A program made the translations under genes and the position numbers. From an uncultured Coriobacteriales bacterium (lineage in GTDB: Bacteria; Actinomycetota; Coriobacteriia; Coriobacteriales; QAMH01): a DNA stretch of 64,000 nt. This document shows, piece by piece, positions 22,284-50,505 of the stretch. The stretch covers positions 42,090 to 106,089 of the forward strand of contig CAKUES010000001.1 in the NCBI GenBank assembly GCA_934646835.1, written 5' to 3'. Numbering within the stretch: position 1 is the stretch's first letter; every line of letters starts with the position of its first letter. Below the pieces are notes generated by a model that ran no database searches, was not told the origin of the DNA, and saw only the letters and a list, made by a program, of their open reading frames with translations.

Positions 22284-22372
22284 ATCGGCAACCGCCGTAT
22301 ACTACGAACTTCGATAAAGCCGAGGGGAGCACACCGTGAGGGCGGCGTCTCCCCTCTTTCGTTGGAGAGAAT

Positions 22373-32481: not shown

Positions 32482-32549
32482 CTCTATGAACGTGAGGTTT
32501 TCAGTTTTGCGGATTAGGAGGTTTTACGGTTAACAAAACGACAGAACTG

Positions 32550-33113: not shown

Positions 33114-33192
33114 GCTCTCCCCCTGCCCCCGCTTTGCATTGCTTAGCCCTGTGAAACAAAATATCGTTCCCAACAGTTTAACGCTCAAAACA

Positions 33193-33711
33193 CTAGTGGC
33201 TATGCTCGCACCCGCAACCGCCGAGCGATTCGCGCAGCCGGTTGCAGCCGCAGCCGGTAGAGCCCTTTTCAACCTCGAGTGCAGCCGATGTCCCATCATC
33301 GACAAGCTCGACCTCGAACCGGAGGTCGTGCCCTGCCAGCTCGTGGTTTGTGTCAAAGATTATCTGGCCGTCTTCTACTGCGAGGACCTTTGCACGACCC
33401 CTGCCGCCTGCCATCCCGAACTCGATGAACTGCCCTATCGGGAGCTCGTCAGCATGCGAGAATCCCTCGGCTGCAACGCTGATGACACCCGCAGGATCGT
33501 AAGGCCCGTAAGCCTTCTCACACGGAATGACAAAGTTGCGCCTCTCGCCTCGGCGCATCTCAAGCAGCTGCTCTTCAAAAGCCGGAAGCAATCCGCCAGA
33601 GCCGATGACCACATTGACGCTGTCCGGCATAAGCCAGGTATTCACAAACTCAGTGCCGCCCTCTAACTGCCCCGCATAGTTGATCTCGACTCGTTGCCCC
33701 TTTGCCAGCAT
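33193..33711 (-). CDS. slyD: FKBP-type peptidyl-prolyl isomerase, SlyD-like, with Cys-rich metal-binding tail
   Basis: FKBP/IF-domain pattern (VEINYAGQLEGGTEF...AGHDLRFEVELV) and the tail GCGCNRLRESLGGCGCEHSH. AAGGAG lies before the ATG at 33711. Confidence 0.8.
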   Translation of the reverse strand: MLAKGQRVEINYAGQLEGGTEFVNTWLMPDSVNVVIGSGGLLPAFEEQLLEMRRGERRNFVIPCEKAYGPYDPAGVISVAAEGFSHADELPIGQFIEFGMAGGRGRAKVLAVEDGQIIFDTNHELAGHDLRFEVELVDDGTSAALEVEKGSTGCGCNRLRESLGGCGCEHSH

Positions 33712-34045: not shown

Positions 34046-34194
34046 CGAAACAAAAAGTGCACGAAGTGTTAAGGGTTTCGGCAAGATGCGGAGTAGGCGA
34101 CAATTTCCGCTTGCAAAACCGCAGGTCACGGCGTTGCCAATTTTTGGCTACTCCGCATCTCGCCGAAACCCTTAACACTTCGTCCACTTTTTGT
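34046..34194 (+). repeat. family A palindromic element, copy A3
   Basis: Same TIRs and core (plus orientation). It is preceded by the conserved linker ggcggcccaccaacgggctcc, as in A5. Confidence 0.85.
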
Positions 34195-34763
34195 TAGGCA
34201 GAGCCGTGGAGCCCTCACGTGGCACCCGTATAAACCCACACGAAAGTTGAAGAAGAGGAATAATGGCGAAATAGGCCTCATGCATGACAAGATGTGTGCA
34301 TCGCAAAAGCGCCGGACTGGCTTACCGGCGTAGCCGTTGTTGTGATGATAGACTTCGCCGTTACAACAAGACCTACAGAAGAAGCCCCGTCCACTACGGC
34401 CCCAACATGCAGCCGGATCGCTGGGGCTCTCAAACCGAGCTACTACTATTTCCCATCATCATGCTGGCCTGCGTCGCTTTGATGACTTTGATTCTTCACT
34501 AGCTCAGCCCCGAGTATTGGAGCGAGCCCACTGACCTCAAAGAGAGCGATAAAGACGTCTGGCATTGCGGGCGCCCGATCGGTGGCTTGGGTTGAACTCA
34601 AGTGCGGCGTTTTCTCTCTGTTTATGGCTTGGCCCCTTGCCTGGCAGCGACGCAATGTTGGCTATCGGTGCAATCGTGTTCGCCTTGTTGGCCATGCAAC
34701 GCCCTTCGCGTTTGTTGCGAGATTTCTTCGCAGAGGCCTGGCCAAGAGCGAGGCCCCGCAGCG

Positions 34764-36026: not shown

Positions 36027-36178
36027 GAAATCAAAAAGTGCACGAAGTGTTAAGGGTTTGGCCGGATGCATCGAGTAGCCAAGAATCCGCAACGCTATGA
36101 CCTGCGGTTTTGCAAGTGGAAATCGCCGTCTACTCGCCTCCTCGCCGAAACCCTTAACACTTCGTGCACTTTTTGTTC
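36027..36178 (-). repeat. family A palindromic element, copy A4 (core inverted)
   Basis: Core cgagtagccaagaatccgcaacgctatgacctgcggttttgcaagtggaaatcgccgtctactcg, the reverse complement of the A2 core. Confidence 0.85.
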
Positions 36179-36290
36179 GCGAGGCGCATTTGCGGACCGA
36201 AATATCACTCTAACTCGCGGCAACATCGCAGCGCAATGCACCCGAGCGCAGGCCGCGAAGCCCATACTCGGGTGCGCCAGCGTGCGACTC

Positions 36291-37085
36291 TTATGCTGCA
36301 TCCGCCGCCTTGTGCATCTTGTCGACGACCTGGGTGTAGAACAGGCCAGCAAGGACGCCGCCGACGAGCGGGGCAACGACGTAAACGACCCACACGCCCC
36401 AGTCGGCAAGGCCGGAGGTAGCCAGGACGCCGCTGGCGACGAGCCACATGACGCGCGGCAGGATGTCGCGGGCGGGATTCAGGCCGGCGTCGGTCATGGG
36501 GCCGGCGGTGCAGATGATCAGCGTAACGGTCAGGCCGATGAACAGCAGGAAGATGACGTCACCGGGCTTGCCGGCATTGGCGTCCTCGGTCATGGAGAAG
36601 ATGACGAAGACGAGGACGAAGACGCCGATACCCTCGGCAAGCGAGCCCTCGAGCACGCCTATGGAGAGCGCCGAGCTGTTGGTGATCTGCTCGCACCAGA
36701 TGGAGGCCGCGGTATCGGGACCGGCAACGCTTGCCCAAGAGGAGTCGAGGCCGTTGACGGAGGCAGCGAAGTAGATCCACAGGACCAACGCTGCGATAAA
36801 GGCTCCGATGAACTGGCCGATGAGGTATGGCAGGACCTTCTTGCCCTCGAGGCGGCCGGTGACGGCCATGGCCACCGTGACGGCCGAGTTGAAGTGAGCG
36901 CAGCTCAGGTTGCGCGTGCAGTAGATCGCAATGGCGATGGCGAGACCCCACACCATACCGACCTGGAAGGGACCGGTGTGAGCCCCGGCCAGCGTTGCGG
37001 TGGCGACGGCGCCGATGCCAAAGAAGCGCATGATGAATGTGCCGATGACCTCGCCCATCACCTCTCGAGCAGTGGCGTTACCCAT
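36291..37085 (-). CDS. MIP-family channel (aquaglyceroporin-like), first NPA box changed to NSA
   Basis: SCAHFNSAVTVAM and DAGLNPARDILPR. AAGGAGGAG lies upstream of the ATG. Divergent from arsM. Confidence 0.9.
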   Translation of the reverse strand: MGNATAREVMGEVIGTFIMRFFGIGAVATATLAGAHTGPFQVGMVWGLAIAIAIYCTRNLSCAHFNSAVTVAMAVTGRLEGKKVLPYLIGQFIGAFIAALVLWIYFAASVNGLDSSWASVAGPDTAASIWCEQITNSSALSIGVLEGSLAEGIGVFVLVFVIFSMTEDANAGKPGDVIFLLFIGLTVTLIICTAGPMTDAGLNPARDILPRVMWLVASGVLATSGLADWGVWVVYVVAPLVGGVLAGLFYTQVVDKMHKAADAA

Positions 37086-37325
37086 GCTCTCTTACTCCTC
37101 CTTGCGTTACATGCGGAAGGGCTTGGCCTTTTGGCCCAGTCGACTGCAGGCGGTGCTCCGTAATCCCACCAGTGGAGTGGGATTCTTTCACATCTATTTG
37201 CGGTTGTCCACTAATCTCTTGTTGCAATAATCTTGTCGAGCTGATACGCTCGAACTACCAACCTATTGAGTAGGTAGGATTAATCACGCGACGAGAGCTG
37301 CCGCTTTCTTAGAGAAGGAGCACCC

Positions 37326-38372
37326 ATGAGCGATATCCGCGAGCAGGTCAAGGAGTACTACAGCAACCTGAAGTCCTCTGGCGACCTCAAGACCGAGGTC
37401 TGCACCTGTGGCAGCGCACCCAAGGACATCCGGGCCATCATCAACGAGCTGCCCACAGAGATCTGCGAGCGCTTCTACGGCTGTGGCAGCCCCATCCCGC
37501 CCATGCTCGAGGGCTGCACCGTGCTCGACCTGGGCTGCGGCACTGGTCGCGACGTGTTCGCCTGCTCCAAGCTCGTCGGTGAGACCGGCAAGGTCATCGG
37601 CGTCGATATGAACGAGGACCAGCTTGCTGTCGGCGAGAAGTACAAGGACGAGGTCGCCAAGGCCTTTGGCTACACGGCCAGCAACGTCGAGTTCAAGCGC
37701 GGCTACATCGAGGACCTCAAGAGCTTGGGCATCGAGGACAGCAGCATCGACGTCGTCATCTCCAACTGTGTCATCAACCTCTCCCCCTTCAAGGAAGCCG
37801 TGTTCTCGGAGATCTGGCGCGTTCTCACCTACGGCGGCGAGCTCTACTTCTCCGACGTTTTTGCCGACCGCCGCATGCCGGCGGAGCTCGCAGCCGACCC
37901 CGTGCTGCGCGGCGAGTGTATCTCCGGCGCGATGTACATCGAGGACTTCCGCCGCTTGATGCGCAAGATCGGTTGGGAGGACTTCCGTTACATGTCCACC
38001 CGCCGCTCCGTCATCGGCAACGACGAGATCGCCGAGAGGGTCAAGGACTTTACCTTCTTCTCCCACACGGTGCGCGCCTTCAAGATCCCCGACAAGATCG
38101 AGGACCTGTGCGAGCAGTACAACCAGGTCGCAACCTATCAGGGCACCATCCCCGGCATGAACCAGTTCTTCGATCTGGACGACCACCATCGCTTCTTCAC
38201 CGATCAGCCGCTTGAGGTCTGCGGCAACTCTTGCGCGATGGTCGAGGACACGCGCTACGGCAAGGCCTTCAAGATCGAGGGCAACCGCGATGTTCACTAC
38301 GGACCCTTCCCCGGTTGCGGCAACATCCCCTACTCCGCCAACGGCGAGGATGCTGGCGGCTGCTGCTGCTAG
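37326..38372 (+). CDS. arsM: arsenite S-adenosylmethionine methyltransferase
   Basis: SAM motif VLDLGCGTGRD. All four ArsM cysteine positions are present (N-terminal CTCG, YGCGSP, ISNCVINL, GECISGA). C-terminal tail GGCCC. GAAGGAG lies before the ATG. Confidence 0.9.
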   Translation: MSDIREQVKEYYSNLKSSGDLKTEVCTCGSAPKDIRAIINELPTEICERFYGCGSPIPPMLEGCTVLDLGCGTGRDVFACSKLVGETGKVIGVDMNEDQLAVGEKYKDEVAKAFGYTASNVEFKRGYIEDLKSLGIEDSSIDVVISNCVINLSPFKEAVFSEIWRVLTYGGELYFSDVFADRRMPAELAADPVLRGECISGAMYIEDFRRLMRKIGWEDFRYMSTRRSVIGNDEIAERVKDFTFFSHTVRAFKIPDKIEDLCEQYNQVATYQGTIPGMNQFFDLDDHHRFFTDQPLEVCGNSCAMVEDTRYGKAFKIEGNRDVHYGPFPGCGNIPYSANGEDAGGCCC

Positions 38373-38459
38373 GTGCAGCGAGGATCTGTCCGCACAGTAA
38401 TCGAGAGCGTGCCCGGCAATTTGCCTGTCGGGCACGCTCTTTTGGGACGCTCGAACCTC

Positions 38460-38738
38460 GCTGCAACCTATGGCGCCGACTTCGTCTGGCACCTACGTGG
38501 GCTTTGGGACTCGCCGGTGCTGACGCGATGCTCGGCGTGCGTTGCAGCGTTGGGGGCGAATGAATTCGGCCCCAAACTAAGTCTTCCTATGATGAAATAT
38601 TGTTTGCGCAGGTAAAACATACGTAGGGGCCGAATTCATTCGACCCGGCGCGACGGGAATCAGATGTTTGTGCGGAAGCATCCTCAGGACGCAAGCCCAC
38701 GTAGGCGCCAGACGCAGTCGGCGCCATCAGGTTGCGAC
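38460..38738. repeat. family B composite (B 38460-38497 in plus orientation, B 38700-38738 in minus orientation) with nested AT-rich insert
   Basis: The inverted B pair has a centre carrying a second inverted repeat, ggggcgaatgaattcggcccc / ggggccgaattcattcgaccc, around a 50-bp AT-rich stretch. Confidence 0.8.
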
Positions 38739-38763
38739 GATTTGGCGGCCCGCCAACGGGCTC

Positions 38764-38913
38764 CGAAACAAAAAGTACACGAAGTGTTAAGGGTTTCCGC
38801 GAGCGGGCGAGTAGGCGGCGATTTCTGCTCGCAAAACCGCAGGTCACGGCGTTGCCGATTTTTGGCTACTCGCCTGCTCGCCGAAACCCTTAACACTTCG
38901 TGTACTTTTTGTT
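38764..38913 (+). repeat. family A palindromic element, copy A5
   Basis: TIRs gaaacaaaaagtacacgaagtgttaagggttt / aaacccttaacacttcgtgtactttttgttc, with the core in plus orientation. Confidence 0.85.
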
Positions 38914-39008: not shown

Positions 39009-39557
39009 CTACTCACCCGGGAAGTAGGGGCACTGCCCGCGCAGGCACTGGGCATTGCCGCCACAGAAGGTGCAGGTCACGCGCTCAGGGCGCACCATGC
39101 GCACGTTGAAGTGCTCGTTGAGAAAATCAATCGCGTCGAGGGCAGCGGTATAGCTCGAGCGACTGCAGCAACGCGGCAGCTCGGCCTCGGCGATATGCCC
39201 TTGCACCGTCGCCGTTAGGCGCTGGCACTGCCCCCAGGGCTCGCGCGTCATGGGCGTCGCGCCGTTGATAACGCTGAGCGCCTGGCCCACGCCCACCGCC
39301 ACACCGCAGCAGCACCACGACTCGCACGAGCAACCGGGGACCTGCCCAGCTCGCGCGGCGTATTCCTTGAGGGCAGCGCCCTTGGTCATCGTGCCGCCGT
39401 TGATCTTGCCACCCGCATTGAAGAAGGCCGTGATGACGGCCGCACCCGCAGCCATATGGCGCATGGGGTCCTCGGCGCAGCAGCCCGCGCCAGCAAGCAG
39501 ACCCTCCATGACATCGATCGCATCGCACGAGCGATTGGTAATGCAGCTCTTGAACAT
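39009..39557 (-). CDS. Cys-rich protein, short paralog of 47723..48442 (possibly DUF5714-like)
   Basis: Shares GGKINGG, PGCSCESWCCCG..VGQALSVINGATPM, RCC..S..TAALDAIDFLNEHFNV and VTCTFCGGNAQCLRGQCPYFP with the long paralog. It lacks the Zn-ribbon N-terminus. Start at MFKSC (39557). Confidence 0.6.
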   Translation of the reverse strand: MFKSCITNRSCDAIDVMEGLLAGAGCCAEDPMRHMAAGAAVITAFFNAGGKINGGTMTKGAALKEYAARAGQVPGCSCESWCCCGVAVGVGQALSVINGATPMTREPWGQCQRLTATVQGHIAEAELPRCCSRSSYTAALDAIDFLNEHFNVRMVRPERVTCTFCGGNAQCLRGQCPYFPGE

Positions 39558-39667
39558 CTCTTCCTCTCTACGCGGACACCCGCGCACCCTCATCAAACGC
39601 AAAGACGCGCTCGCCAGCATTACAGCCAGCGAGCGCGCAAAAGCTCGAAACCTACTATCCCTTGCAG

Positions 39668-40606
39668 CTAGCAGCAGCTGCTGGTCACGACCTCGCCGTT
39701 ATCGGCAGTGTAAGGGATGTTGCCGCAGCCGGGATAGGGGCCGTAGTGCACGTTGCGGTTGCCGTCGATCTTAAAGTACTTGCCCACGCGCGTGTCCTGG
39801 ACCATGGAGCAGGAGTTGCCGCAAACCTCGAGCGGCTCGTCCTTGACAAAGCGATGATGATCGTCGAGGTCGTAGTACTCGTCACAGCCCTCGATGCCGC
39901 CCAGGTAGGTGGCAACCTGGCCGTACTGCTCGCACAAGTCCTCGATCTTGTCGGGGATCTTGTAGGCGCGCACGGTGCGGATAAAGAAGGTGATGCCGGC
40001 AAAATCGGGGTCGTCAGTGGAGGTGGCGACGGTACGTGTGTGACGGAAGTCTGCCCAACCGGCGGCGGTCATCTGACGGCGGAAGTCCTCGATGTACATT
40101 GCGGAGCCGGTGCCGGCAGCGCGCTTGACGGGGCAGGACTTGATGGAGGCGGTCATGCGACGATCGGCGAAGACGTCGGTTGCGTAGAGCTCGCCACCAT
40201 AAGCCAGCACACGCCAAACCTCGTTGAGGACAGCCTGGGTGTTGATCGGCGCAGAGATGCCGCAGTTGGAGATGACGAGGTCAGTCTCGGAGTCGACGAT
40301 CGCCTCGAGGTTGGTGAGCTCGCTCACGATGAACTGGCAGTTAGCCGGGGCGTGCTTGCGCGCGACGGCGATCTTGTCTGCATCCGGATCAACGCCGATG
40401 ACCATGCCGTCTTCGCCAACGAGCTTGGAGGCGATGTAGGCGTCTCGACCGGTGCCACAGCCCAGGACGAGGACGCGGATGCCCTCCATCGCAGGCGGGA
40501 AGGGGTAACCGGTCGTGACCGTGCCAGCGATAACCTCCTCGGGGATCTCCTTCAAGATCTCCGCGATCTTCTCCGACGGGGTGCCGGGAATGCGAATCTC
40601 GCTCAT
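39668..40606 (-). CDS. ArsM-like SAM methyltransferase paralog lacking three of the four As(III)-binding cysteine positions
   Basis: VLVLGCGTGRD. The C-terminal half is almost collinear with ArsM (KIPDKIEDLCEQY..VATY...LEVCGNSC.MV.DTR.GK.FKI.GNR.VHYGP.PGCGNIPY). YGCG is replaced by GYPFPP, GECISGA by AAGTGSA, and there is no N-terminal Cys. The tail is SSCC. Confidence 0.8.
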   Translation of the reverse strand: MSEIRIPGTPSEKIAEILKEIPEEVIAGTVTTGYPFPPAMEGIRVLVLGCGTGRDAYIASKLVGEDGMVIGVDPDADKIAVARKHAPANCQFIVSELTNLEAIVDSETDLVISNCGISAPINTQAVLNEVWRVLAYGGELYATDVFADRRMTASIKSCPVKRAAGTGSAMYIEDFRRQMTAAGWADFRHTRTVATSTDDPDFAGITFFIRTVRAYKIPDKIEDLCEQYGQVATYLGGIEGCDEYYDLDDHHRFVKDEPLEVCGNSCSMVQDTRVGKYFKIDGNRNVHYGPYPGCGNIPYTADNGEVVTSSCC

Positions 40607-40681
40607 AGTGATGCTTCCTTTCTCGAAACCGGCCGCACGGCCGGCTTGTCCCTAGTAATCGAAACGCCGCAGGGCCAGCCC

Positions 40682-41320
40682 TTACCTGAACGCGCTCAAA
40701 ATGCCGCCGAACATGGCATCGAGCTGGTCTTTCGACAGCTCATTGAGCGTCCAGGCACCGTTGGTTCGCGTCAGGTTCAAGTCGATGGTCTTGCTCTTGG
40801 ACTTGCTGCTCAGGGCAGAGACCTCGTCTTCGACCTTGGCGATCAAGGCCTTGGTCATCTCCGCGTCCGCGTCGCTGCCGTCGCTCACAGCCTTGATGAA
40901 GCCCTCACCAAAACCCTCCATGCCGTCCTTGTACGCGCTGCCAAAGTCGTAGGCCTTGAAGGTCACGTTGACCTTGGCGGTGTTGTTGTCGATGGCTGTG
41001 CTGTTGATGGTGTAGTCGAACGAGCACAGCTTCTTGGAGACATCGGCGATAAACTCCTGCTGGCTATCGCTCAAGCTATCAGTGTCAGGCGACATGGCGA
41101 CGTCATCCTTTGCGGACAGCATGCCCACGACGTCCTTGCTCTTGCTGTCGAGCTTGCCGCCGGTGTACACCGTAGCAAGCGTCGTACCGTCCATCGTCTT
41201 GATGGAGGTCAGGGCCGTATCGGCAACCTCCGCCGGCTTCATCTCGCCGCAACCGGCCAGGCTCAGCGCCATAATCGACGCTACACCCAGGGCTGCTAGC
41301 GGCCTCATGAACTTACGCAT
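40682..41320 (-). CDS. lipoprotein of unknown function
   Basis: Signal and lipobox MRKFMRPLAALGVASIMALSLAGC. The ATG overlaps the TorD-like stop by 8 nt. Confidence 0.65.
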   Translation of the reverse strand: MRKFMRPLAALGVASIMALSLAGCGEMKPAEVADTALTSIKTMDGTTLATVYTGGKLDSKSKDVVGMLSAKDDVAMSPDTDSLSDSQQEFIADVSKKLCSFDYTINSTAIDNNTAKVNVTFKAYDFGSAYKDGMEGFGEGFIKAVSDGSDADAEMTKALIAKVEDEVSALSSKSKSKTIDLNLTRTNGAWTLNELSKDQLDAMFGGILSAFR

Positions 41321-41966
41321 CCAATACCTCCTCGCTCAAAACACCGACGAGAAGACGCATCAGCGCAGGGTAGAGCGGAAACTCTGCATAGTCGTCGACC
41401 AGCTGCTTGAACTCCGGCAGCCAACGCAGGATATAGAGCGCGACGAAGTCGCGATAGGCCTCGACGAACTCCTCCTGGCCGCGCTGCTCGTGGGTGGCGG
41501 CGAGCCGTGCCGCAAAGGCGAGCAGGTAGCGGATGTGATCGGCCGGCTCGTGCTCGCTGGCAGACAGCTCCAGCCCAAACTGCTCGTAGAGCTGGGCCAC
41601 CTCCATGGTCGTCGGGCCGTAGACCTGGTGCTCACCGTCGACGTAGTACGACGCGTAGGGCGGCGCGTACATTTTGAAGCTGCCGATAAAGAGCCTCGTG
41701 TACTCGAGCTGGGCGGGCTCGGCGTCTTGCGGCTGCTCGACGCTGGGCGCCGCAAAGGCCTGCGCTGCATCGAGGACAGCGGTGATTTGCTCGGCATATG
41801 CCGAGCACGCAGCATCTGCCACACACAAGCGCAGGGGCGCAAGCGCCGCCTGCAGGCCCAACGCGGGATAGGTCAGGGCCGCAGACAGCGCTGCGAGCAG
41901 CGAGGACGGGGCGACGGGGGCGATGGGGGCGATGTTCCCAGAGTTTTCCTGCATGTCCCCTACCAC
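41313..41966 (-). CDS. TorD/DmsD-family molybdoenzyme maturation chaperone (ArrD-like)
   Basis: EYTRLFIG...PPYASYY...EPADHIRYLLAFAA, the typical TorD-family pattern. The start is either GTG 41966 (overlapping the upstream TAG) or ATG 41954. Confidence 0.75.
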   Translation of the reverse strand: MVGDMQENSGNIAPIAPVAPSSLLAALSAALTYPALGLQAALAPLRLCVADAACSAYAEQITAVLDAAQAFAAPSVEQPQDAEPAQLEYTRLFIGSFKMYAPPYASYYVDGEHQVYGPTTMEVAQLYEQFGLELSASEHEPADHIRYLLAFAARLAATHEQRGQEEFVEAYRDFVALYILRWLPEFKQLVDDYAEFPLYPALMRLLVGVLSEEVLDA

Positions 41967-42673
41967 GTCTTCTTGAACTCGCGGATGTAGTAGACGGCGG
42001 GCTTGGTGCCCTTCTCCGGCTTGAGGACCGTGGGCTCAAAGGACTGGGTGAGCTCGTAGATCTCGCCGTAGATGTCTGCCTCGTTGCCAAAGATGCGCGC
42101 ACCTGCGGGGCAGGCGTCGACGCAATAGGGCTTGTCGCCGGAGTAGACCAGGTGCTTGCACATCTGGCACTTGAGCGGGCCGCCCTTCCTGGTGTTGGGC
42201 AGGTTGTACGCGTCGAGCGCCGGGTCATGGGAGGGGTACTTGGCTCCGATGAACTCCTGCATCTCCTCAGGCGTGCCCGTGCAGTCCTTGATGAGCTGCT
42301 TGACGGAGCTCACCTGATCAGCGCTGGACTCGCCGTCGCAGCGCGTGATGGCGTGGTAAGGGCAGGCCGCAGCGCACAGGCCGCAGGCGACGCACTTGCT
42401 CGGGTCGTGCACGGTGAGGCCGTACTCGTCCTTGTGCATGGCATGCGTGGGGCACGCCTTGACGCAGGCGGCGTCGGTGCAGTGGTTGCACATGACCGGC
42501 CTGTAGGAGTACTCGACGTCCGGGAAGGTGCCCGTAGTCTCGTTGACGTGATAGGTCAAAAACGTGCCCTCGGGGACCTCGTTATGGGTTTTGCACGCGA
42601 TCTCGCATGCACCGCAGCCGACGCAGCGGTGCAGGTCGATGACCATGGCGTAGCGGGTCTTCTTGTCTGCCAT
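41960..42673 (-). CDS. arrB: 4Fe-4S ferredoxin-type subunit (putative ArrB)
   Basis: Four Cys groups (CVGCGACEIAC, CNHCTDAACVKAC, CVACGLCAAAC, CQMC...C). GAGGAG lies before the ATG, 2 nt after the large-subunit stop. Confidence 0.8.
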   Translation of the reverse strand: MADKKTRYAMVIDLHRCVGCGACEIACKTHNEVPEGTFLTYHVNETTGTFPDVEYSYRPVMCNHCTDAACVKACPTHAMHKDEYGLTVHDPSKCVACGLCAAACPYHAITRCDGESSADQVSSVKQLIKDCTGTPEEMQEFIGAKYPSHDPALDAYNLPNTRKGGPLKCQMCKHLVYSGDKPYCVDACPAGARIFGNEADIYGEIYELTQSFEPTVLKPEKGTKPAVYYIREFKKTW

Positions 42674-42675
42674 CT

Positions 42676-45267
42676 TTACTCCTCAACCTTCTCGATCTTC
42701 ACGCGGGCGAAACCGCCGTGGCGCGCGCTGTTGTTGGAGATGTGGTCGAAGACGCTCGGCAGGATCTCGTTGTTGTTGCCACCGCGCGGCTGGTGCTTGG
42801 CAAAGTCCTTGGCGGCGATGTGGCCGTATGCCCAGTGGCCCTGGCCGTAGCACTTGATGACGACACCCGGGCGCGTGCCCTCCCAACCCTTGGCATGGAC
42901 GGTGATGGAGCCCTGGACGGAGGTCACCTTGATGGTGTCGCCGTCCTTGAGGCCCAGCGCGGCCATGTCAACGGGGTTGATCTTCATGACGTCGTCCCAA
43001 GCCTCGTCGCCGGGGTCGACGTCCTTGAACTCCTGGTAGCCAACGCAGTTGGCGCTGCGGCCCTCGCGGTTGAGGCGGCTGCGGTGCTCCTCGAAGATAT
43101 AGGGGAACTCGCTCTCGTCGCCCAGGCGCACCGGCTCCTCGTAATGAGGAACGAAGGCGCGGCCGTCGCGAGCCTCGTAGCCCATCCACTCCATAACCTG
43201 GTCGGTGCCGACGCGGTACATGTCGGCCTTCTTCTCCAAGTCGCGCTTGAGGGTCTCGGAGTAGAACTCGAACTTGCCGGTCTCGGTGCCAAAGTTGCCC
43301 CAGTGCTTCTTGAAGCCCGCGGGCTTGGAGTTGAAGACGCCCTTTGAGGCGAAGTTGCGCCAGCTCTTGAGGCTGTCGCCCTGGCCGGCCTTCTCTGCGT
43401 CGCCGTTCCAGAAGGGCTCGGTGACGAGCTTGACGGCGATTTCTGCGAACTTGGCGGCGTCGGTGGGACGATTGCCGGTCTCGGGGTCGATGAAGGCCTG
43501 CGAGTAGTACTTGTAGATGTCGCCAAAGCCGCGCTCGTCGAGCTTCTTGGCGAGCTCCCAGGCGATCTCCGTCTCGTCGGTGAGGGTGTCCCACAGCGGC
43601 TTGATAATCGGCTGCTGAACGCTCATGTAACTGATGAGGCCCTGGTAGTTCTTCTGGCAGCCCCAGCGCTCGAAGAGGTGATGCTTGGCCGGAAGGACGA
43701 TGTCGGCGAACATCGCGGACTCGCTCACATGCGTGGTGATGCAGGCGTAGAAGGGAACGCTGGCCAGTGCCTTCTCCCAGCGCTGAGCGCCGGTGGCGGA
43801 GTAGGCGAAGTTGCACCAGCAGCTGATGAGCACCTTGGTGTCGTACCAGCCTGCATCCTCGACGTCGTGGTTGATGACGTCGGCGAGTCGGTTGGTGATG
43901 ACCATATCGTTGATCTTGCCGCCGTGCGCGCCGAGGAACTCCTTCTCGACGCGGCCGTCGATCTTGGGCTTCTTGGCGTTGGAGCGGGCGTTGCCGTTGC
44001 GCCAGCGATTGTGGTCGGGCAGGTGGCCGGCCGTCATGGACGCCGTGCGCATCGTGCCGCCCTCGTGCTCGGTGGAGCCGACGAGGCCGTTGAGGGCGTT
44101 AGCAGCCATGGCGCCGTAGACGCCGCGCGGCTGGTTGGAGACGCCGGGGCTCATCCAGGAGATGGAGCTGGCGCCGTATTTGCCAAACTGCGTCGCCACG
44201 TCGATGATCGTCTCCGCGGGGATGCCGGTGATCTCTGCGGCCCACTCGGGGGTCTTATCCTTGAGCTCGATGTTCCACCAGCGCACCAGGCCGTAGCCCT
44301 TGTTGTACTCGAACTTCTCCTCGTCGACCATCTCGCCGGCGACGAAGAGGTTGATGCGGGTGTTGGCGTCGTCGGAGATGTCGCGGTTCCAGACACCGGT
44401 CTTGAAATCGCCGACGAACTCCTTATTCCACAGGCCCTTGGTGAGGATGACGTGCGCCATGGCGCAGGCCAGCGCACCGTCGGTGCCGGGGATGATGGGG
44501 AGCCACTTGTCGGACTTGGCGGCGGTGGCGCTCAGGCGCGGGTCGACGACGTAGATCTTCGCGCCGTCCATGACGTCGCCCCACTTGGAGATGACAGAGG
44601 AGACCTGGCGGTTGGAGGCGATGGGGTCAGTCGACCACATGATGATGCACTTGGCGTTGGCAAGGTCGTAGTCGCGGTAGTTGAAGAAGCCCTCGGTGTA
44701 GTAGGCGCCCGCCTTCTCGACCTCTGCGCACAGCGTGGAGTGGCCGTAGTAGTTGGGCGTGCCAAAGAGCACGGGAAACTTGCTGTGGAGGACGTCGCCC
44801 ACAGCAGTGGAGCGGCCCTTCAGCATCATGAGCTTGTGGGTTTCCTTGTTCTCCTGCAGCTCCATGAGCTTGTCGGCGATCGTGCCAAGCGCCTCGTCCC
44901 AGGTAATGGGCACGAAGCCGGGGTCGATGTCGCGGCCCTTCTCAGGGTTGGTGCGCTTCATCGGCGTCTTGATGCGATCGGGATCGTAGAGCTGCTGAAT
45001 CGCCAGATGAGGACGGGGGCAGATGTTTCCGCCGGTGGCCTTGCAGTTCCAGTTGCCCTTGATGCGCAGGACGCGACCGCCCTGCGTGTAGACCTTAACC
45101 GGGCAGAAGGAAGTGCAGCCCTGGCAGGTGGACGCGGTCCACTTGCCTTTCTCGTTCTTCTTATGCGACTCGTCTGCAACGGCTGTGAAGGGGTTGGCAG
45201 CGCCGACACCTGCAGCCGCTAGTCCCAAGGCGCTAGCCTTGAGAAACGAGCGTCTATTCAGATTCAA
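42676..45267 (-). CDS. arrA: Tat-exported molybdopterin oxidoreductase, putative respiratory arsenate reductase large subunit (ArrA-type)
   Basis: Twin-arginine leader MNLNRRSFLKASALGLAAAGVGA. The blocks STCQGCTSFC, LQQLYDPDR, HSTLCAE and GQGHWAYGHIAA match my recollection of ArrA sequences. TTG start with AGGAAG 5 nt upstream. Confidence 0.8.
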   Translation of the reverse strand: MNLNRRSFLKASALGLAAAGVGAANPFTAVADESHKKNEKGKWTASTCQGCTSFCPVKVYTQGGRVLRIKGNWNCKATGGNICPRPHLAIQQLYDPDRIKTPMKRTNPEKGRDIDPGFVPITWDEALGTIADKLMELQENKETHKLMMLKGRSTAVGDVLHSKFPVLFGTPNYYGHSTLCAEVEKAGAYYTEGFFNYRDYDLANAKCIIMWSTDPIASNRQVSSVISKWGDVMDGAKIYVVDPRLSATAAKSDKWLPIIPGTDGALACAMAHVILTKGLWNKEFVGDFKTGVWNRDISDDANTRINLFVAGEMVDEEKFEYNKGYGLVRWWNIELKDKTPEWAAEITGIPAETIIDVATQFGKYGASSISWMSPGVSNQPRGVYGAMAANALNGLVGSTEHEGGTMRTASMTAGHLPDHNRWRNGNARSNAKKPKIDGRVEKEFLGAHGGKINDMVITNRLADVINHDVEDAGWYDTKVLISCWCNFAYSATGAQRWEKALASVPFYACITTHVSESAMFADIVLPAKHHLFERWGCQKNYQGLISYMSVQQPIIKPLWDTLTDETEIAWELAKKLDERGFGDIYKYYSQAFIDPETGNRPTDAAKFAEIAVKLVTEPFWNGDAEKAGQGDSLKSWRNFASKGVFNSKPAGFKKHWGNFGTETGKFEFYSETLKRDLEKKADMYRVGTDQVMEWMGYEARDGRAFVPHYEEPVRLGDESEFPYIFEEHRSRLNREGRSANCVGYQEFKDVDPGDEAWDDVMKINPVDMAALGLKDGDTIKVTSVQGSITVHAKGWEGTRPGVVIKCYGQGHWAYGHIAAKDFAKHQPRGGNNNEILPSVFDHISNNSARHGGFARVKIEKVEE

Positions 45268-45505: not shown

Positions 45506-45575
45506 TTCATGACTGGCGGAAGTCACCCCTGTGCTCACAGGGAATCGCCACCTCGTGAGAAAGAGTCCTACTCAA

Positions 45576-46373
45576 ATGAAAATCGCAAAGACCCTCGTCG
45601 GTGAGATCATCGGCACCTTCATGATGTGCTTTCTGGGCATCGGCGCTGTCGCGACCGCGACCCTGTACGGCGCACTCACCGGCCCTGGCCAGATCGGCCT
45701 CGTCTGGGGTATCGCAATCGCGCTGGGCATCTTCATGACCCGCAGCCTGTCTGACGCGCACTTCAACCCTGCCGTTACCCTGGCCATGTGCATCTCCGGC
45801 CGCAACAAGTGGTCCGAGCTGCCCGTCTACTTCATCGGCCAGTGCATCGGCGCCTTCCTCGGCGCTGGCGCCCTGTGGATCCTCTTCGCCGACTCCGTCG
45901 CCAAGAACCTGGCAAACGCCGGCCTGACCATGTCCACCAACTCCATCGGCTCTGCCGCCACCATCTGGGCCGAGGTCTTCCCCAACAGCTCCCAGGCCAT
46001 GATCTCCATGCAGGGTGCAATGTTCGCCGAGGGCTTCGCCGTCTTCATCCTGTGCCTGGTCATCCTCGTCGTGACCGACAAGAACAACGAGGGCGCCCCC
46101 ACCGCAGCACTCGCACCGCTGTTCATCGGCCTCACCGTCACCGTTCTGATCAACGTCGTCGGCCCTCTGACCGACGCTGGTCTCAACCCCGCCCGTGACC
46201 TCATGCCCCGCGTGGTCGCGATGATGGTTGGCTTCAAGACCGTTGCCTTTGGCACCAACGCCTTCAACGTCTGGATGGTCTACACCGTCGCGCCGTTCAT
46301 CGGCGGTGCTGTTGCAGCCCTGCTGTATCGCTTTGGCCTCACTCGCATGTTTGAGGACAAGAACGAGGCCTAA
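45576..46373 (+). CDS. MIP-family channel (aquaglyceroporin-like)
   Basis: SDAHFNPAVTLAM and DAGLNPARDLMPR. The start is taken at MKIAKTLVGEIIG (45576). Confidence 0.9.
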   Translation: MKIAKTLVGEIIGTFMMCFLGIGAVATATLYGALTGPGQIGLVWGIAIALGIFMTRSLSDAHFNPAVTLAMCISGRNKWSELPVYFIGQCIGAFLGAGALWILFADSVAKNLANAGLTMSTNSIGSAATIWAEVFPNSSQAMISMQGAMFAEGFAVFILCLVILVVTDKNNEGAPTAALAPLFIGLTVTVLINVVGPLTDAGLNPARDLMPRVVAMMVGFKTVAFGTNAFNVWMVYTVAPFIGGAVAALLYRFGLTRMFEDKNEA

Positions 46374-46678: not shown

Positions 46679-46699
46679 GGGCCGGAAGCCCCTAAAACG

Positions 46700-47450
46700 C
46701 GGGCTGAAATCAGCACCACCCCTCAAAGGGGTGGTTTGCTCTGGGCCTATAAGGCCAAGGTTTCCGGGCAGCGCCTCAAGGCGCTGCCCTTCACTTCGTT
46801 CAGGGCGCTACCGCCTTTGACTCTTGGGTGCCGCACAAAGCGGCTGCTGTCCCAGCTACTTCCTCTTGAACGGGTCCTCGTACTCCTTGACGCTCAACCG
46901 GTCCAGGGCGATGTCGTGCATCTCCTGCTCCCGGATGCACTTGACTATCGTGGCCTCGTTGAGGCCGACGGTGCTCACGTAGTACCCCTCTGCCCAGAAG
47001 TGCCTGTTGCCGAACTTGTACTTCAGGTTGGCGTGCCTGTCGAACATCATCAGCGCGCTCTTGCCCTTCAGATACCCGACGAAGGAGCTCACGCTGATCT
47101 TCGGGGGTATAGCCACAAGCATGTGGACGTGGTCGGGCATCAGGTGCCCCTCTATTATCTCGACGCCCTTGTACCTGCAGAGGTTCCTGAATATCTCCCC
47201 GAGGGACTCCCTGTACTGGTTGTAGATCACTTTTCGCCTATACTTCGGTGCGAACACGATGTGGTACTTGCACATCCACTTCGTGTGCGACAGGCTGTTC
47301 GCCTTGTTCGCCATATGGTGGCCGCCTCTCTATCCGTGGCCGATGCGTCCTGAACAAACGAATCGTAACCCCGGCCGGCGGCCGCCACCCACCCGGTTGG
47401 GCATAGCCTTCGACGCGCACCCGCATAGCGGGTGGTTTCTTGTGTCGCGC
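46700..47450 (-). mobile_element. IS200/IS605-family insertion sequence (IS200-type, tnpA only); boundaries approximate
   Basis: A single Y1 transposase gene flanked by same-orientation subterminal hairpins, each followed by gggtggttt (46716-46734 ccacccct-caa-aggggtgg; 47418-47434 cacccgc-ata-gcgggtg). The size of about 0.75 kb fits IS200. Confidence 0.65.
46856..47314 (-). CDS. tnpA: IS200/IS605-family Y1 (HUH) transposase TnpA
   Basis: KYHIVFAPKYRRKV, HUH motif PDHVHMLV, catalytic Tyr region FWAEGYYVSTVG; 152 aa. Confidence 0.92.
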   Translation of the reverse strand: MANKANSLSHTKWMCKYHIVFAPKYRRKVIYNQYRESLGEIFRNLCRYKGVEIIEGHLMPDHVHMLVAIPPKISVSSFVGYLKGKSALMMFDRHANLKYKFGNRHFWAEGYYVSTVGLNEATIVKCIREQEMHDIALDRLSVKEYEDPFKRK

Positions 47451-47479
47451 TACGCGCTCCACAGGCTCATGAGTCTACA

Positions 47480-47629
47480 AAATCAAAAAGTGCGCGAAGT
47501 GTTAAGGGTTTGAGCGGGTTATCGAGTAGCCGAAAATCGGCAACGCTGTGACCTGCGGTTTTGCGAGCGAAAATCGCCGTCTACTCGGCAACCCGCTCAA
47601 ACCCTTAACACTTCGCGCACTTTTTGTTC
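47480..47629 (-). repeat. family A palindromic element, copy A6 (core inverted)
   Basis: Core cgagtagccgaaaatcggcaacgctgtgacctgcggttttgcgagcgaaaatcgccgtctactcg, with the same TIRs. Confidence 0.85.
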
Positions 47630-47722: not shown

Positions 47723-48442
47723 CTACTTGCTCGGGAAGTACGGGCACTGCTCGCGCAGGCACTGGGCGTTGCCGCCGCAGAAGGTGCAGGTCACCTTCTC
47801 AGGGCGCTCCATCTGCACGTTGAAGCGCTCGTTGAGGAAGTCCGTGGCATCGAGCACGGCCGTGAAGCCAGTGCGCTTGCAGCAGCGCGGGCCACCCACA
47901 TCCGCCAAATGCCCCAAGACCGTCGAGGTCAGGCGCTGGCACTGCGCCCACTCGCTTGTTGCCATGGGCGTCGAGCCGTTGATAATGCTGAGCGCCTGGC
48001 CAACGCTGGTCGCCGCGCCACAGCAACCCCAGAAACCGCAGGATCCGCCCGGTACCTGCAGGCTGCGGGCCACGAGCTCTTTGAGGCCCGCCTCCAGATC
48101 CATAGCGCCGCCGTCAATCTTGCCGCCGGCGTTGACGTAGGCCGTCATAACGGAGGCGCCGATGAGCGTGTGGTGCTCGGGACCGTTGGGATAGACGGAC
48201 TTGTCGCTCATGATCTGCTGCAAAATCTCGACCGCGTTGGTCGAGGCGCATGTGGGGCAGAACTCGAGGCCAAAGTCCACACCGCCGCGACGATGACAGT
48301 CGTTGCAGACATAGTGCCCCTTTGAGCACGTGGTCTTGCCCATCTCCTTCTTACCGCAGATAGCGCAGGTCTGCTCGGCTGCCTCGTTCGCGTAGACGAG
48401 CTCGCTTCCGCAGATCAGGCAATTGGGCGCTCCTTGTGACAT
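47723..48442 (-). CDS. Cys-rich protein with N-terminal zinc-ribbon, long paralog of 39009..39557 (possibly DUF5714-like)
   Basis: CLICGSEL...CAICGKK...CSKGHYVCNDCH, then GGSCGFWGCCGAATSVGQALS and VTCTFCGGNAQCLREQCPYFP. The start at 48442 has GGGGAGGG 6 nt upstream. Confidence 0.65.
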   Translation of the reverse strand: MSQGAPNCLICGSELVYANEAAEQTCAICGKKEMGKTTCSKGHYVCNDCHRRGGVDFGLEFCPTCASTNAVEILQQIMSDKSVYPNGPEHHTLIGASVMTAYVNAGGKIDGGAMDLEAGLKELVARSLQVPGGSCGFWGCCGAATSVGQALSIINGSTPMATSEWAQCQRLTSTVLGHLADVGGPRCCKRTGFTAVLDATDFLNERFNVQMERPEKVTCTFCGGNAQCLREQCPYFPSK

Positions 48443-48520
48443 GCCAAACCCTCCCCTTCTCTCGATGCAGCCGCAAACGCGGCGACTTACCAACAGTTTC
48501 CAGCTCTCCTGTGACGTGTC

Positions 48521-49573
48521 CTACATCCACCTTATCGCGTGCTCTTTGAGCGCGTTGATCAACCAGTTGAGCAGCGTGACGACGACGCCCACTGTGATGA
48601 TGCCAGCAAGCACGTTCACGTAGTTCGCAAAGTTCGTGTAATTGATGATGTAGTAGCCCAAACCAGATTTTGCACCGAGCATCTCCGCAAACGTCAGCAT
48701 CATGATTGCAGACGTCAGCTGCGCGTTGAGCCCAGACAAGACACCGGGGATCAGATACGGCAAAATCACCGAGCACACCATCTCCCATTTTGTGAGCTCA
48801 AGCATGCGGGCAGACTCGATGATGCGGCGATCCATGGAAGAAACGCGCACAATCGTCCCCAAAAACGTAGGCCAAAACAGTCCGAGGAAGATGACCGTGG
48901 CCGACGCCAGGCGAAAAGTCGGCATGAGCGCAACCAGATACGGAGCGAAGACGATGGAGGGAATCGGTGCGAGGACGCGGGCGATAGGTGCGAGGACGTT
49001 GCACAGCGATGGCGTCCAACCAACGACAGCGCCGAGCAGCACCCCGGCAAAAATCGAGGTCACAGCTCCCATAAGAAGCAGCTGGATCGACGAGCCGATG
49101 TGAACGAGCAAGTCCTTCCACTGAGTCGCGAAAACGTTGAACACCGCCTCCGGAGCAGGGACGAGCACGGGGTGCATCATGGCGAACTTGGTCGTCGCAA
49201 GGTCCCACATCGCGAGTAGCGCCCAGACAATGATGATGATCCACGAGGCCGAGACGGAGCTGTCTCCCTGCTGGGAGTCCGCGTCCTTGCCACATCCGAG
49301 AAGCCGGCTCAAATAAAGCAGCTCCATAAACCCAACCGAGACCAGGAGGGGGACGCAGCTCGGAACCTTCTTGGCTCCAGGCAACAAGATGATGACGACG
49401 AGCGCGGCAAGGAACAGATGGCTTGCGACGACCATCATGCGGCGCTTGCGTTTGCTACGATCGCGCATCTCCTTCTCCTGGGCCTCACAGCATGCGATGA
49501 CATCGTCGGATATGAGGTTCTGGACGACTTGGGGCTCATCGGCGCCGATGTTTTTGATGTTCGTCATGCCCAT
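48521..49573 (-). CDS. ABC transporter permease (NitT/TauT-type, SsuC/TauC-like) with extra N-terminal region
   Basis: A BPD-type permease core with the EAA-like loop SSMDRRIIESARMLELTKWEMV. The start is ambiguous (ATG 49573 or 49567). Confidence 0.85.
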   Translation of the reverse strand: MGMTNIKNIGADEPQVVQNLISDDVIACCEAQEKEMRDRSKRKRRMMVVASHLFLAALVVIILLPGAKKVPSCVPLLVSVGFMELLYLSRLLGCGKDADSQQGDSSVSASWIIIIVWALLAMWDLATTKFAMMHPVLVPAPEAVFNVFATQWKDLLVHIGSSIQLLLMGAVTSIFAGVLLGAVVGWTPSLCNVLAPIARVLAPIPSIVFAPYLVALMPTFRLASATVIFLGLFWPTFLGTIVRVSSMDRRIIESARMLELTKWEMVCSVILPYLIPGVLSGLNAQLTSAIMMLTFAEMLGAKSGLGYYIINYTNFANYVNVLAGIITVGVVVTLLNWLINALKEHAIRWM

Positions 49574-49581
49574 ACCCCCCC

Positions 49582-50361
49582 CTAATCCTCGTCCATGTAA
49601 AACAGACCGAGCAACTCGTCGCGCAACTCGTGGTAGCCGGAAAGCGATATGAAGTCACCGGACGTGCGGGGGCGAGGAAGGTCGACCTCGATCACGCGCT
49701 CGATGTGGCCCGGACGCATGAAAACGATGCGGTCCGCCAAAAGAATCGCCTCGTCGAGGTCATGCGTGACAAACACCGCCGTGCGGCTGTTGTCCCCGTC
49801 GTTCCAGACCTCCTCGAGAAGCGCCTGCAGCTTGGCACGGTTGCGCGCATCGAGGGCGCCAAAGGGTTCGTCCATCAGCAGTATCTCGCTCTCCATGGCC
49901 AAGGCGCGGGCAATCGCGACGCGCTGTTGCATGCCACCGGAAAGCTGAAACGGATATTTGTCCGCAGAATCCAACATTCCTACCTGCGCCAACGCAGATT
50001 TTGCACGACAGAGTGTCTCGTCTTTTGATAAGCCTTTGCCGTTTTTGGAATGCTCGATACTGAAGGCAACGTTTTTGATAGCAGTCATCCACGGGAAGAG
50101 CGAGTAATGCTGAAACACCATGGCGCGGTCAGACCCGGGACCACTAACGGGCTTCCCATTTGCCACGATACCGCCCACTGTCGGTTTCTCGAGACCGGCG
50201 ATGAGGTTGAGCATCGTCGTCTTTCCACAGCCGGAATGGCCGATAAGGCAGACGAACTCCCCTTGCTTGATCTGCAGATTCGCGTCCTCTATCGCAAGAT
50301 GCGTTTGGCTGGCGTCCTTGTAAGCAAATGACATGTTCGATATCTCGATAACGTTTGGCAC
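49582..50361 (-). CDS. ABC transporter ATP-binding protein (NitT/TauT-type)
   Basis: Walker A GHSGCGKTT, signature LSGGMQQR, Walker B ILLMDEPFGALD. The GTG at 50361 (VPNVIEISNMSF) is preferred over the track start. Confidence 0.9.
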   Translation of the reverse strand: MPNVIEISNMSFAYKDASQTHLAIEDANLQIKQGEFVCLIGHSGCGKTTMLNLIAGLEKPTVGGIVANGKPVSGPGSDRAMVFQHYSLFPWMTAIKNVAFSIEHSKNGKGLSKDETLCRAKSALAQVGMLDSADKYPFQLSGGMQQRVAIARALAMESEILLMDEPFGALDARNRAKLQALLEEVWNDGDNSRTAVFVTHDLDEAILLADRIVFMRPGHIERVIEVDLPRPRTSGDFISLSGYHELRDELLGLFYMDED

Positions 50362-50505
50362 GTGAGTCCTTCCAGACACCGCTGATAACAATCGCCCTGC
50401 CTGTGCTGCCTGGGAAAACTTCCTGACAGCAGAACCGCAGGGCAAAAACAGCCTGCCGAAAAAGGGCAAAAACTCCTCTTTCGGCAGGCGTCTTTGGCAA
50501 ACCTC

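Follow-up and report, generated by a model that had tools for sequence, protein, structure and literature searches.

Introduction

To our knowledge, all accepted mechanisms of arsenite methyltransferases of the ArsM/AS3MT family rest on two to four enzyme cysteines. The N-terminal cysteines of CmArsM, Cys44 and Cys72, are needed for methylation of arsenite (As(III)), and tertiary arsines need no cysteine. Here we describe MT', an ArsM-fold methyltransferase paralog that has dropped three of the four canonical cysteines. It is encoded in a 64,000-nucleotide (nt) stretch of DNA from an uncultured Coriobacteriales bacterium (contig CAKUES010000001.1, positions 42,090 to 106,089; hereafter the window, numbered from its first letter), between predicted arsenate reductase (arr) genes and a gene for a Cys-rich protein of the DUF5714 family.

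The number of cysteines that bind the arsenical is three for As(III), two for its trivalent monomethylated form, MAs(III), and one for the dimethylated form, DMAs(III) (PMC3877260). BlArsM needs two cysteines (Huang et al. 2018, as cited in PMC8649762), and a single-Cys arsenite methyltransferase, TtArsM, has been reported (PMC8649762). Published ArsM surveys drop sequences with fewer than three of the four cysteines (PMC5552862), so the family of MT' would have been screened out. In our literature search, neither this family nor its association with DUF5714 was described anywhere, and nothing turned up on ArsM paralogs in Eggerthellaceae. We hold the descriptive part of the following account (anatomy, family, selection and genomic contexts) with high confidence.

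Loss of canonical cysteines from an ArsM paralog

The two methyltransferases compared in the window are:

39668-40606, minus strand: MT', ArsM-fold methyltransferase paralog of 312 aa (Methyltransf_31; ArsM-type matches)
37326-38372, plus strand: canonical four-Cys ArsM, convergent with the arr-MT' unit

A preliminary description of the window had taken MT' for an ArsM paralog that keeps only the cysteine of the SNC motif. Alignment with the window ArsM, CrArsM and CmArsM, a check that it had proposed, bears out both points. MT' is 53% identical to the neighboring ArsM, with peak identity in the C-terminal domain, and matches the crystal sequences of CrArsM (E = 9e-62) and CmArsM (E = 1e-47). 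The SNC cysteine (C115) is the only one retained among the four canonical cysteines. The N-terminal CxC is absent, and residues 1-49 contain no Cys. ArsM FYGCG has become VTTGY, with Thr at the Cys72 position, and RGECISGA has become RAAGTGSA. Thus, for the As-binding pair (Cys174 and Cys224 in CmArsM), MT' has the equivalent of Cys174 (C115) but not that of Cys224, a position occupied by Gly throughout the short protein family to which MT' belongs.

The preliminary description called MT' cysteine-depleted. This holds for the canonical cysteines, three of which are lost, but not for the protein overall: because 11 Cys remain, the term is relative. C225, C262, C266, C294 and the CC tail belong to a C-terminal motif found without variation in anaerobe-type ArsMs. 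C90 and C158 are shared only by the MT' orthologs of its own subclade. C158, which bears on the earlier proviso that the missing cysteines might be supplied elsewhere, lies 7 residues ahead of the position where the Cys224 equivalent is lost and is flanked by two short helices in a confidently modelled region. Against the NCBIfam arsenite methyltransferase model PRK11873 (cutoff 263) MT' scores 87.8 bits, and since the neighboring four-Cys ArsM also misses the cutoff (175 bits), this cutoff does not discriminate here.

The C-terminal domains of the anaerobe-type ArsMs and of MT' have four invariant Cys and three invariant His in common, and share the motifs EDLCEQY, DDHHRF, VCGNSC and H-x-GP-x2-GCG plus a CC(C) tail. 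This Cys/His set may be a structural metal site or a second metalloid site, unlike what is seen in algal ArsM structures.

A family of short ArsM paralogs under purifying selection

The best 120 matches to MT' in a database search were examined, and 28 of them are short proteins (~304-320 aa) that have lost the N-terminal Cys pair and the Cys224 equivalent. In proteins of the MT' type, Thr or Ser stands in for Cys72 and the SNC Cys is kept. A larger subclade, with 16 of the 28 proteins, carries Trp in place of Cys72 and Gly in place of both As-binding cysteines, and is without any active-site thiol ("zero-Cys"). In a third type (proteins P0105 and P0115), a second Cys is found 8 residues past SNC. 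A neighbor-joining tree of 96 sequences places all short forms in one long-branched clade, whose sister group is formed by the four-Cys ArsMs from Coriobacteriia and Firmicutes.

When 1.84 billion representatives were searched exhaustively, the family came down to a handful of clusters at 50% identity. Scanning the genome collection with the MT' sequence alone gave no match. An alignment-based rescan did give matches, all of them metagenome-assembled genomes (MAGs) of Coriobacteriia/Eggerthellaceae from gut samples, with no isolate among them. Judging from the sequences collected, the family is restricted to Coriobacteriia and arose by duplication of an anaerobe-type ArsM.

Orthologs of MT' at 81-86% identity occur in MAGs of other genus-level groups. 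The ratio of nonsynonymous to synonymous substitution rates (dN/dS) is 0.09-0.21 between MT' and these orthologs, 0.02-0.12 for MT' within the species and 0.08-0.17 in the zero-Cys subclade; at the codon level, the family is clearly under purifying selection.

These values also bear on the possibility that MT' and the short DUF5714 protein encoded next to it are pseudogenes in the making, derived from the nearby ArsM and from a longer DUF5714 copy. Intact paralogs of both do lie within 10 kb, and the short DUF5714 gene is truncated, fast-evolving and, in its 3' end and flank, collinear with the long copy. However, the reading frames are intact in four strains, dN/dS within the species is as low as just given for MT' and 0.12-0.17 for the DUF5714 gene, orthologs of MT' persist in other genus-level MAGs, and MT', at 53% identity to the local ArsM, belongs to a separate clade. 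Decay of the pair is hardly credible, and for MT' it is excluded. An origin of MT' as a recent duplicate of the local ArsM is ruled out by the separate clade and the 53% identity, and its being a decaying copy or pseudogene is ruled out by its tree position and dN/dS.

Other ArsM-fold clusters lacking part or all of the thiol triad were seen as well (representative proteins P0247, P0262, P0283, P0295, P0307, P0308, P0259, P0277, P0300 and P0320), having for example GEG for GEC, or SNN or SNS for SNC. With several other 50%-identity clusters without the triad, Cys-poor ArsM-fold proteins are not unique to the window locus, and thiol-variant ArsM-like families appear to be commoner than the literature suggests.

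Fold, SAM pocket and possible role of MT'

The AlphaFold2 (AF2) model of MT' (mean predicted local distance difference test score, pLDDT, 87.3) keeps the three-domain ArsM fold, with an N-terminal lid, a Rossmann domain for S-adenosylmethionine (SAM) and a C-terminal domain. Template modelling (TM) scores against CrArsM, CmArsM and human AS3MT (hAS3MT) range from 0.79 to 0.87, the best being CrArsM (TM 0.87, root-mean-square deviation 2.1 A over 304 columns), versus ~0.45 for other, generic methyltransferases.

For the SAM pocket, 91 canonical ArsM sequences were compared with the two main subclades of the short family. The short proteins keep 78 of 135 canonical-invariant positions: nearly the entire C-terminal domain (all such positions except two residues and the CC tail), the GxGxG loop, the post-I acid and D109/N114. 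MT' itself has a GCGTG loop, the ribose-binding acid D73 and D109-x4-N114. The lid, SNC and GEC loops are 73-88% conserved within subclades, compared with 84-86% for the remaining protein, and 33-48% between subclades. Loops that are constant within and different between subclades form the pattern expected of re-specified pockets, not of a dead site.

We tentatively favor, at somewhat less than an even chance, the reading that MT' is an accessory cytoplasmic component of the arsenic island, SAM-dependent and acting on a substrate that no longer needs the protein thiol triad. MT' would still bind SAM as an accessory arsenic-pathway protein and would methylate an arsenical that needs one protein thiol or none, such as DMAs(III) or tertiary arsines from ArsM or from the radical SAM enzyme ArsS. 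Arr would make As(III) outside the cell, a MIP channel would admit it, and MT' would take over after the canonical ArsM. The MT'-DUF5714 module has, in this species, moved directly behind arrA-arrB-arrD-lipoprotein. We infer both the substrate and the catalytic competence of MT'.

That MT', with or without DUF5714, catalyzes an undescribed arsenic methylation needing no enzyme thiol triad seems to us unlikely. One candidate version would be a "quaternising" or final step on DMAs(III) or tertiary arsines, giving trimethylarsine or arsonium compounds in gut Coriobacteriia; the other candidate is a split ArsM, in which DUF5714 would hold the metalloid for a thiol-free methyltransferase.

Several observations weigh against MT' as a SAM-dependent accessory enzyme. 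All 91 canonical sequences have the motif-I Asp, which is replaced by Val in every short form. In the short family, other residues also stand at the positions of hAS3MT Tyr59 (Val or Ala), Met103 (Pro or Phe), Gln107 and Glu137 (Thr or Met); at the Ile136 position, the MT' subclade has Leu and the zero-Cys subclade has His. In hAS3MT, the Y59A variant is inactive, M103A, I136A and E137A raise the Km for SAM 5-16 fold, and M103A and E137A bind SAM more weakly (PMC3790734). The loss of these SAM-contact residues weakens the case for canonical SAM binding by MT'. Since a zero-Cys subclade exists, MT' may be able to do without C115, and the family as a whole cannot be explained by a one-thiol DMAs(III) model. 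Finally, the cassette that carries the canonical ArsM and a MIP channel gene is absent from the otherwise 98-99% identical assembly L089, which retains MT'.

The damaged SAM pocket supports the main rival reading, in which MT' would be a pseudoenzyme. Without catalysis of its own, it would serve ArsM, or some other protein of the island, as partner, scaffold or regulator by means of its invariant C-terminal domain. Dead methyltransferase paralogs act as partners elsewhere, for example METTL14 and DNMT3L. The loss of three or all four catalytic Cys, of the motif-I Asp and of the residues equivalent to Tyr59, Met103 and Glu137 fits such a role, as do the nearly complete set of canonical-invariant C-terminal positions and the co-occurrence of canonical ArsM and MT'-type genes in the same MAGs (loci L006/L035, L061/L027, L048/L029 and L054/L033). 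It is harder to reconcile with the retention of GxGxG, of the ribose-binding Asp/Glu and of the D-x4-N stretch, and with replaced active-site loops that are conserved within subclades and do not drift. Moreover, L089 retains MT' without a neighboring ArsM, and the steady neighbors of MT' are MIP and DUF5714, not ArsM. We consider a pseudoenzyme unlikely, though well worth keeping in view. The preliminary description had proposed either a changed substrate or a non-catalytic role for the paralog, and both readings stay viable.

A portable MT'-DUF5714 module and its join to arr

The MT'-DUF5714 pairing is found at every locus of the window subclade and its sister (window, L001, L003, L006, L004 and L097). 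In L001 and L006, MIP-MT'-DUF5714 stands in a housekeeping neighborhood without arr. In L003, MT'-DUF5714 lies beside an oppositely oriented MIP gene and a separately oriented arrABD. L004 and L097 have, in order, MT', a gene of the metallo-beta-lactamase (MBL) fold, DUF5714, CobW and an ArsM-ArsS fusion. The zero-Cys gene is usually the second of a MIP-MT' pair by arrABD (L011, L034, L055) and stands alone in L048 and L054. The conserved unit is a portable MT'-DUF5714 module, often with a MIP channel.

In the window, this module forms the downstream end of a block of six genes, whose members besides MT' are:

42676-45267, minus strand: ArrA-like catalytic subunit with a molybdenum bis-pyranopterin guanine dinucleotide (Mo-bisPGD) cofactor, twin-arginine leader MNLNRRSFLK, TTG start
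41960-42673, minus strand: ArrB-like four-cluster Fe-S subunit (ArrB model 225 bits; Fer4_11)
41313-41966, minus strand: TorD/DmsD-type chaperone, ArrD (Nitrate_red_del 94 bits; alternative ATG at 41954)
40682-41320, minus strand: lipoprotein with LAGC lipobox, weak DUF5105 similarity
39009-39620 (from M22, 39009-39557), minus strand: Cys-rich open reading frame, DUF5714 (Pfam match)

The gene coordinates and junctions agree with the six tightly packed minus-strand genes of the preliminary description, in the same order. The arrA/arrB junction is 2 nt; arrD overlaps arrB by 7 nt, or follows it after 5 nt if the ATG at 41954 is used (in L085, arrD is called from a later ATG, giving 213 aa); and the lipoprotein gene overlaps arrD by 8 nt. 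A gap of 75 nt (40607-40681) separates the lipoprotein gene from MT', and one of 47 nt (start at 39620) or 110 nt (start at 39557) separates MT' from DUF5714. In the 75-nt spacer, which carries the Shine-Dalgarno sequence GAAAGGAAG ahead of MT', neither a promoter-like nor a terminator-like site was called. With the short gap, the Shine-Dalgarno sequence and no terminator called, read-through from an arr promoter through the lipoprotein gene into MT' is plausible, and the whole block may be co-transcribed.

The arsenate-reductase-type identity of the operon, also proposed earlier, is supported. The arrA product scores 950 bits on the NCBIfam ArrA model (cutoff 1600), leading all other NCBIfam models by more than 700 bits (runner-up family 229 bits), and aligns full-length to the Shewanella ArrA structure 6CZ7 with 847 bits. 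Among NCBIfam models, the gene that follows fits ArrB best (225 bits, cutoff 450). Clade-level features are present (Tat signal, Fe-S motif, Cys Mo ligand, adjacent ArrB), and the equivalog score is not reached. The active-site stretch H-S-x-x-C-x4-K is kept. At the position of Shewanella RGRY, the window ArrA has KGRS, and all Coriobacteriia ArrA homologs collected have KGR[S/A]. The Tyr of (R/K)GRY, which we take to be part of the ArrA active-site motif, is therefore absent from the window protein.

The same six-gene order recurs in three further assemblies from gut metagenomes of the same species (L085, L089, L090), and the arrangement is not a chance juxtaposition. The arr-MT' join was found only in this species, in four assemblies including the window. 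The closest syntenic relative, L017 (ArrA 90%, ArsM 94% and lipoprotein 76% identical to the window), has the order ArsM, lipoprotein-arrD-arrB-arrA, MIP, with an AIM24-family gene where the window has MT'-DUF5714. Homology with other MT' loci starts ~17 nt upstream of the MT' ATG. As the module occurs without arr in L001 and L006, apart from it in L003 and not at all in the arr operon of L017, the join represents a species-level rearrangement. It is local, lies next to repeats resembling miniature inverted-repeat transposable elements (MITEs), and is not a conserved design; the idea of an operon fused to the paralog, an unusual coupling of a periplasmic reductase to a methyltransferase, is not supported in the form in which it was put. 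An ancestral or obligate arr-MT' operon is ruled out by the comparative gene contexts.

Compared with L089, the window differs at ~3.6% of nucleotides in MT' and the short DUF5714 gene, and at ~1.1% in the flanking arr genes. This local divergence hotspot possibly results from recombination or gene conversion.

The contexts also speak to a substrate other than arsenic. MT' might methylate selenium (Se), tellurium (Te), antimony (Sb) or bismuth (Bi) species, or a small thiol or organic molecule, and sit in the island merely through descent from ArsM. MIP channels pass many small neutral solutes, many other ArsM-fold clusters are without the thiol triad, and the lid, SNC and GEC loops are remodelled in MT' and its relatives, with a conserved Trp at the Cys72 position in the zero-Cys subclade. 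Yet arsenic-associated neighbors (Arr, MIP-ArsM-type pairs, ArsS fusions, DUF5714) are present in all ~13 independent contexts, and selenium- or tellurium-specific genes were not seen near the MT' loci. We therefore give a non-arsenic substrate little credence.

DUF5714 proteins

The Cys-rich gene product matches Pfam DUF5714 (PF18978) with 140.5 bits (gathering cutoff 26.2), and the NCBIfam MbdU metal-binding selenoprotein region is named with PF18978 as its closest known kin. The preliminary description rightly placed a Cys-rich gene downstream of MT'; a start at 39620 is less likely than one at M22. The annotated ATG at 39620 falls in a hairpin loop and the ATG at 39557 (M22) has a GAGG Shine-Dalgarno box, so the protein most likely has 182 aa. 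Two further features are relevant here:

39605-39638, minus strand: perfect 14-bp GC-rich hairpin followed by CUUUGCGUUUG, terminator-like, between MT' and the DUF5714 gene
47723-48442, minus strand: full-length DUF5714 paralog, 239 aa from MSQGAPNCL, with zinc ribbon, ending an operon for an NMT1-type ATP-binding cassette (ABC) transporter

The 110-nt spacer between MT' and DUF5714 has a folding energy of -46.6 kcal/mol (z = -2.7), with a weak U-tract, and the hairpin is identical in L085; it may limit expression of the DUF5714 gene.

Coriobacteriia DUF5714 proteins usually have 233-256 aa and an N-terminal zinc ribbon, which each of the 120 proteins closest to the long paralog has and the short window protein lacks. 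Conserved columns were defined as those at least 90% conserved in Coriobacteriia-type members (88 columns). The short protein keeps 48 of the 88, compared with 76-88 in other members; PNGPEHHTL, for example, has changed to AEDPMRHMA and GGxCGxWGxCG to GCSCESWCCCG. In the domain, 23 of 71 conserved positions are substituted. The domain has seven invariant Cys, among them a vicinal CC, and the CC and C-terminal Cys motifs are retained in the short protein, and some of its lineage-specific residues recur in the copies linked to MT' in L001 and L003. At the 3' end and in the flank downstream, the short gene is collinear with the long-copy locus. With a within-species dN/dS of 0.12-0.17, the short protein is truncated and unusually divergent, yet by this measure under purifying selection.

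An AF2 model of the long paralog (pLDDT 88.5) shows a zinc-ribbon hairpin, a seven-helix bundle and a Cys-rich tail; a Foldseek search of it against the PDB gave no match below E = 1, and our literature search found no paper mentioning the DUF5714 family. As the last gene, DUF5714 follows genes for a substrate-binding protein, an ATPase and a permease in the window (47723-51648), in L086 and in L091-L094; in L086, this operon is convergent with ArsS and an AhpD-like gene. In L088 (5181-7705, an Eggerthellaceae MAG), DUF5714 comes right after NifS-NifU, with Rrf2 upstream. At four distant loci (L149 and three metagenome loci), an ArsC of the low-molecular-weight phosphatase (LMWP) type directly follows DUF5714. 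A survey of 80 metagenomic DUF5714 loci found most distant members without arsenic neighbors, the only recurring neighbors being the ABC operon and, at 4 loci, LMWP-type ArsC. The neighbors thus hint at both arsenic and Fe-S chemistry.

These findings allow us to weigh the split ArsM introduced above, in which the DUF5714 cysteines would bind As(III) or a methylarsenical and supply MT' with thiols in trans. Adjacency at all loci of the window subclade and its sister, the seven invariant Cys with their vicinal pair, and the proximity of other DUF5714 genes to ArsS/AhpD, ArsM-ArsS fusions and LMWP-type ArsC are what such a division of labor would lead one to expect. Set against this, the zero-Cys subclade usually has no DUF5714 neighbor, the window DUF5714 is truncated with its core motif altered and 40 of the 88 conserved columns gone, and a hairpin stands between the two genes. 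In addition, the DUF5714 gene after NifS-NifU points to Fe-S cluster biology, and the majority of distant DUF5714 loci are without arsenic neighbors. Thiol supply in trans is in our view quite improbable.

The surrounding arsenic island

From its gene content, the window is a large arsenic island with Arr, two MIP channels, ArsM, ArsS, ArsR, an AhpD-like protein and a signal-less ArrA paralog. Near the arr-MT' unit lie:

36291-37085, minus strand: MIP channel 1, divergent from ArsM
45531-46373, plus strand: MIP channel 2, divergent from arrA
38767-38913, no strand: MITE-like palindromic repeat, just downstream of the DUF5714 gene, at the boundary of the ArsM-MIP cassette

MIP channel 1 has NSA for NPA in the first half-helix motif (HFNSAVT); channel 2 has the standard NPA. 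The MITE-like repeat is present in four copies of ~145 nt (34049-34195, 36032-36175, 38767-38913 and 47484-47626) with arms 85-96% complementary, two of which flank the 2.7-kb ArsM-MIP1 cassette (36188-38865). Relative to L089 and L090, the window has insertions at 46686-47479, with an IS200-type TnpA (46856-47314), and at 48462-51903, with the three-gene NMT1-type ABC transporter (48521-51648).

A second arsenic cluster (18660-23383, plus strand) opens with ArsR (HTH_5). Its ArrA paralog (19008-21425) has no Tat signal, no adjacent ArrB and RGRC at the RGRY site; it scores 731 bits on the ArrA model (from model position 51) and is 41% identical to the periplasmic ArrA. It is followed by a CMD/AhpD-like protein (21945-22283) and by ArsS (22373-23383; TIGR04167 367 bits, cutoff 300). 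A cytoplasmic Arr-type enzyme is here paired with the arsenosugar radical-SAM enzyme ArsS. Homologs at ~50% identity are found near ArsM and DUF5714 in Ellagibacter MAGs. In the region 29668-33356, a further molybdoenzyme (895 aa) with a pyrogallol-hydroxytransferase-like N-terminus adjoins a TetR regulator, as is typical of the large reductase arsenals of Eggerthellaceae.

In Eggerthellaceae, ArsM-ArsS fusions (~660-770 aa) were seen in L004 (13935-15920), L016, L031, L032, L055 and L064, made up of a four-Cys ArsM domain and a radical SAM/DUF3641 part. The same islands also encode ArsM-like proteins of another family, ~365 aa long and showing the pattern T-D-L-C-R. In the window, an Rfam scan gave no RNA family, and PADLOC gave nothing beyond a generic methyltransferase-domain match.

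Significance and comparison with known systems

A conserved Cys-dropped ArsM-fold family, selected in arsenic islands of human and animal gut Coriobacteriia, would be either a missing enzymatic step, possibly a final methylation or organoarsenical tailoring, or a new partner or regulatory subunit. In either case, metagenomes would have to be read differently for the potential of the gut to transform arsenic, and DUF5714 would gain its first functional handle. Since it unites Arr, a signal-less Arr paralog, ArsM, ArsS and two MIP channels, the island offers a compact target for work on arsenic respiration coupled to methylation in an uncultured gut lineage.

The window ArrAB resembles that of Shewanella sp. 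ANA-3 (6CZ7) in its Tat signal, N-terminal Fe-S Cys motif, Cys Mo ligand and H-S...K stretch and, as in the Shewanella type, an ArrB-like subunit and then a TorD-type chaperone follow. It differs in an extra lipoprotein gene and in the absence of a membrane anchor or cytochrome gene from the operon.

With canonical ArsM/AS3MT (CmArsM 4FR0/4FS8, CrArsM 5EVJ, human AS3MT 8XT7), MT' shares the three-domain fold at 35-41% identity, the GxGxG loop, the SNC cysteine, the C-terminal domain and an arsenic-island context by MIP. It has lost the equivalents of Cys44, Cys72 and Cys224 and the motif-I Asp, and its N-terminus is ~40 residues shorter. BlArsM and TtArsM are precedents for arsenic methylation with fewer than three enzyme thiols. 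BlArsM keeps the pair equivalent to Cys174/Cys224, one of which MT' has lost. TtArsM of Thermus thermophilus has one conserved Cys, is distant from the ArsM family and was proposed to use two His (PMC8649762). MT', unlike TtArsM, is a close paralog of canonical ArsM and has a sister subclade without active-site Cys.

Dead paralogs of the METTL14/DNMT3L type keep the fold, lose catalytic and some cofactor contacts, and coexist with an intact enzyme, as does MT'. MT', however, still has the glycine-rich loop and the ribose-binding acid, its altered pocket is conserved, and a partnership of this kind would be putative.

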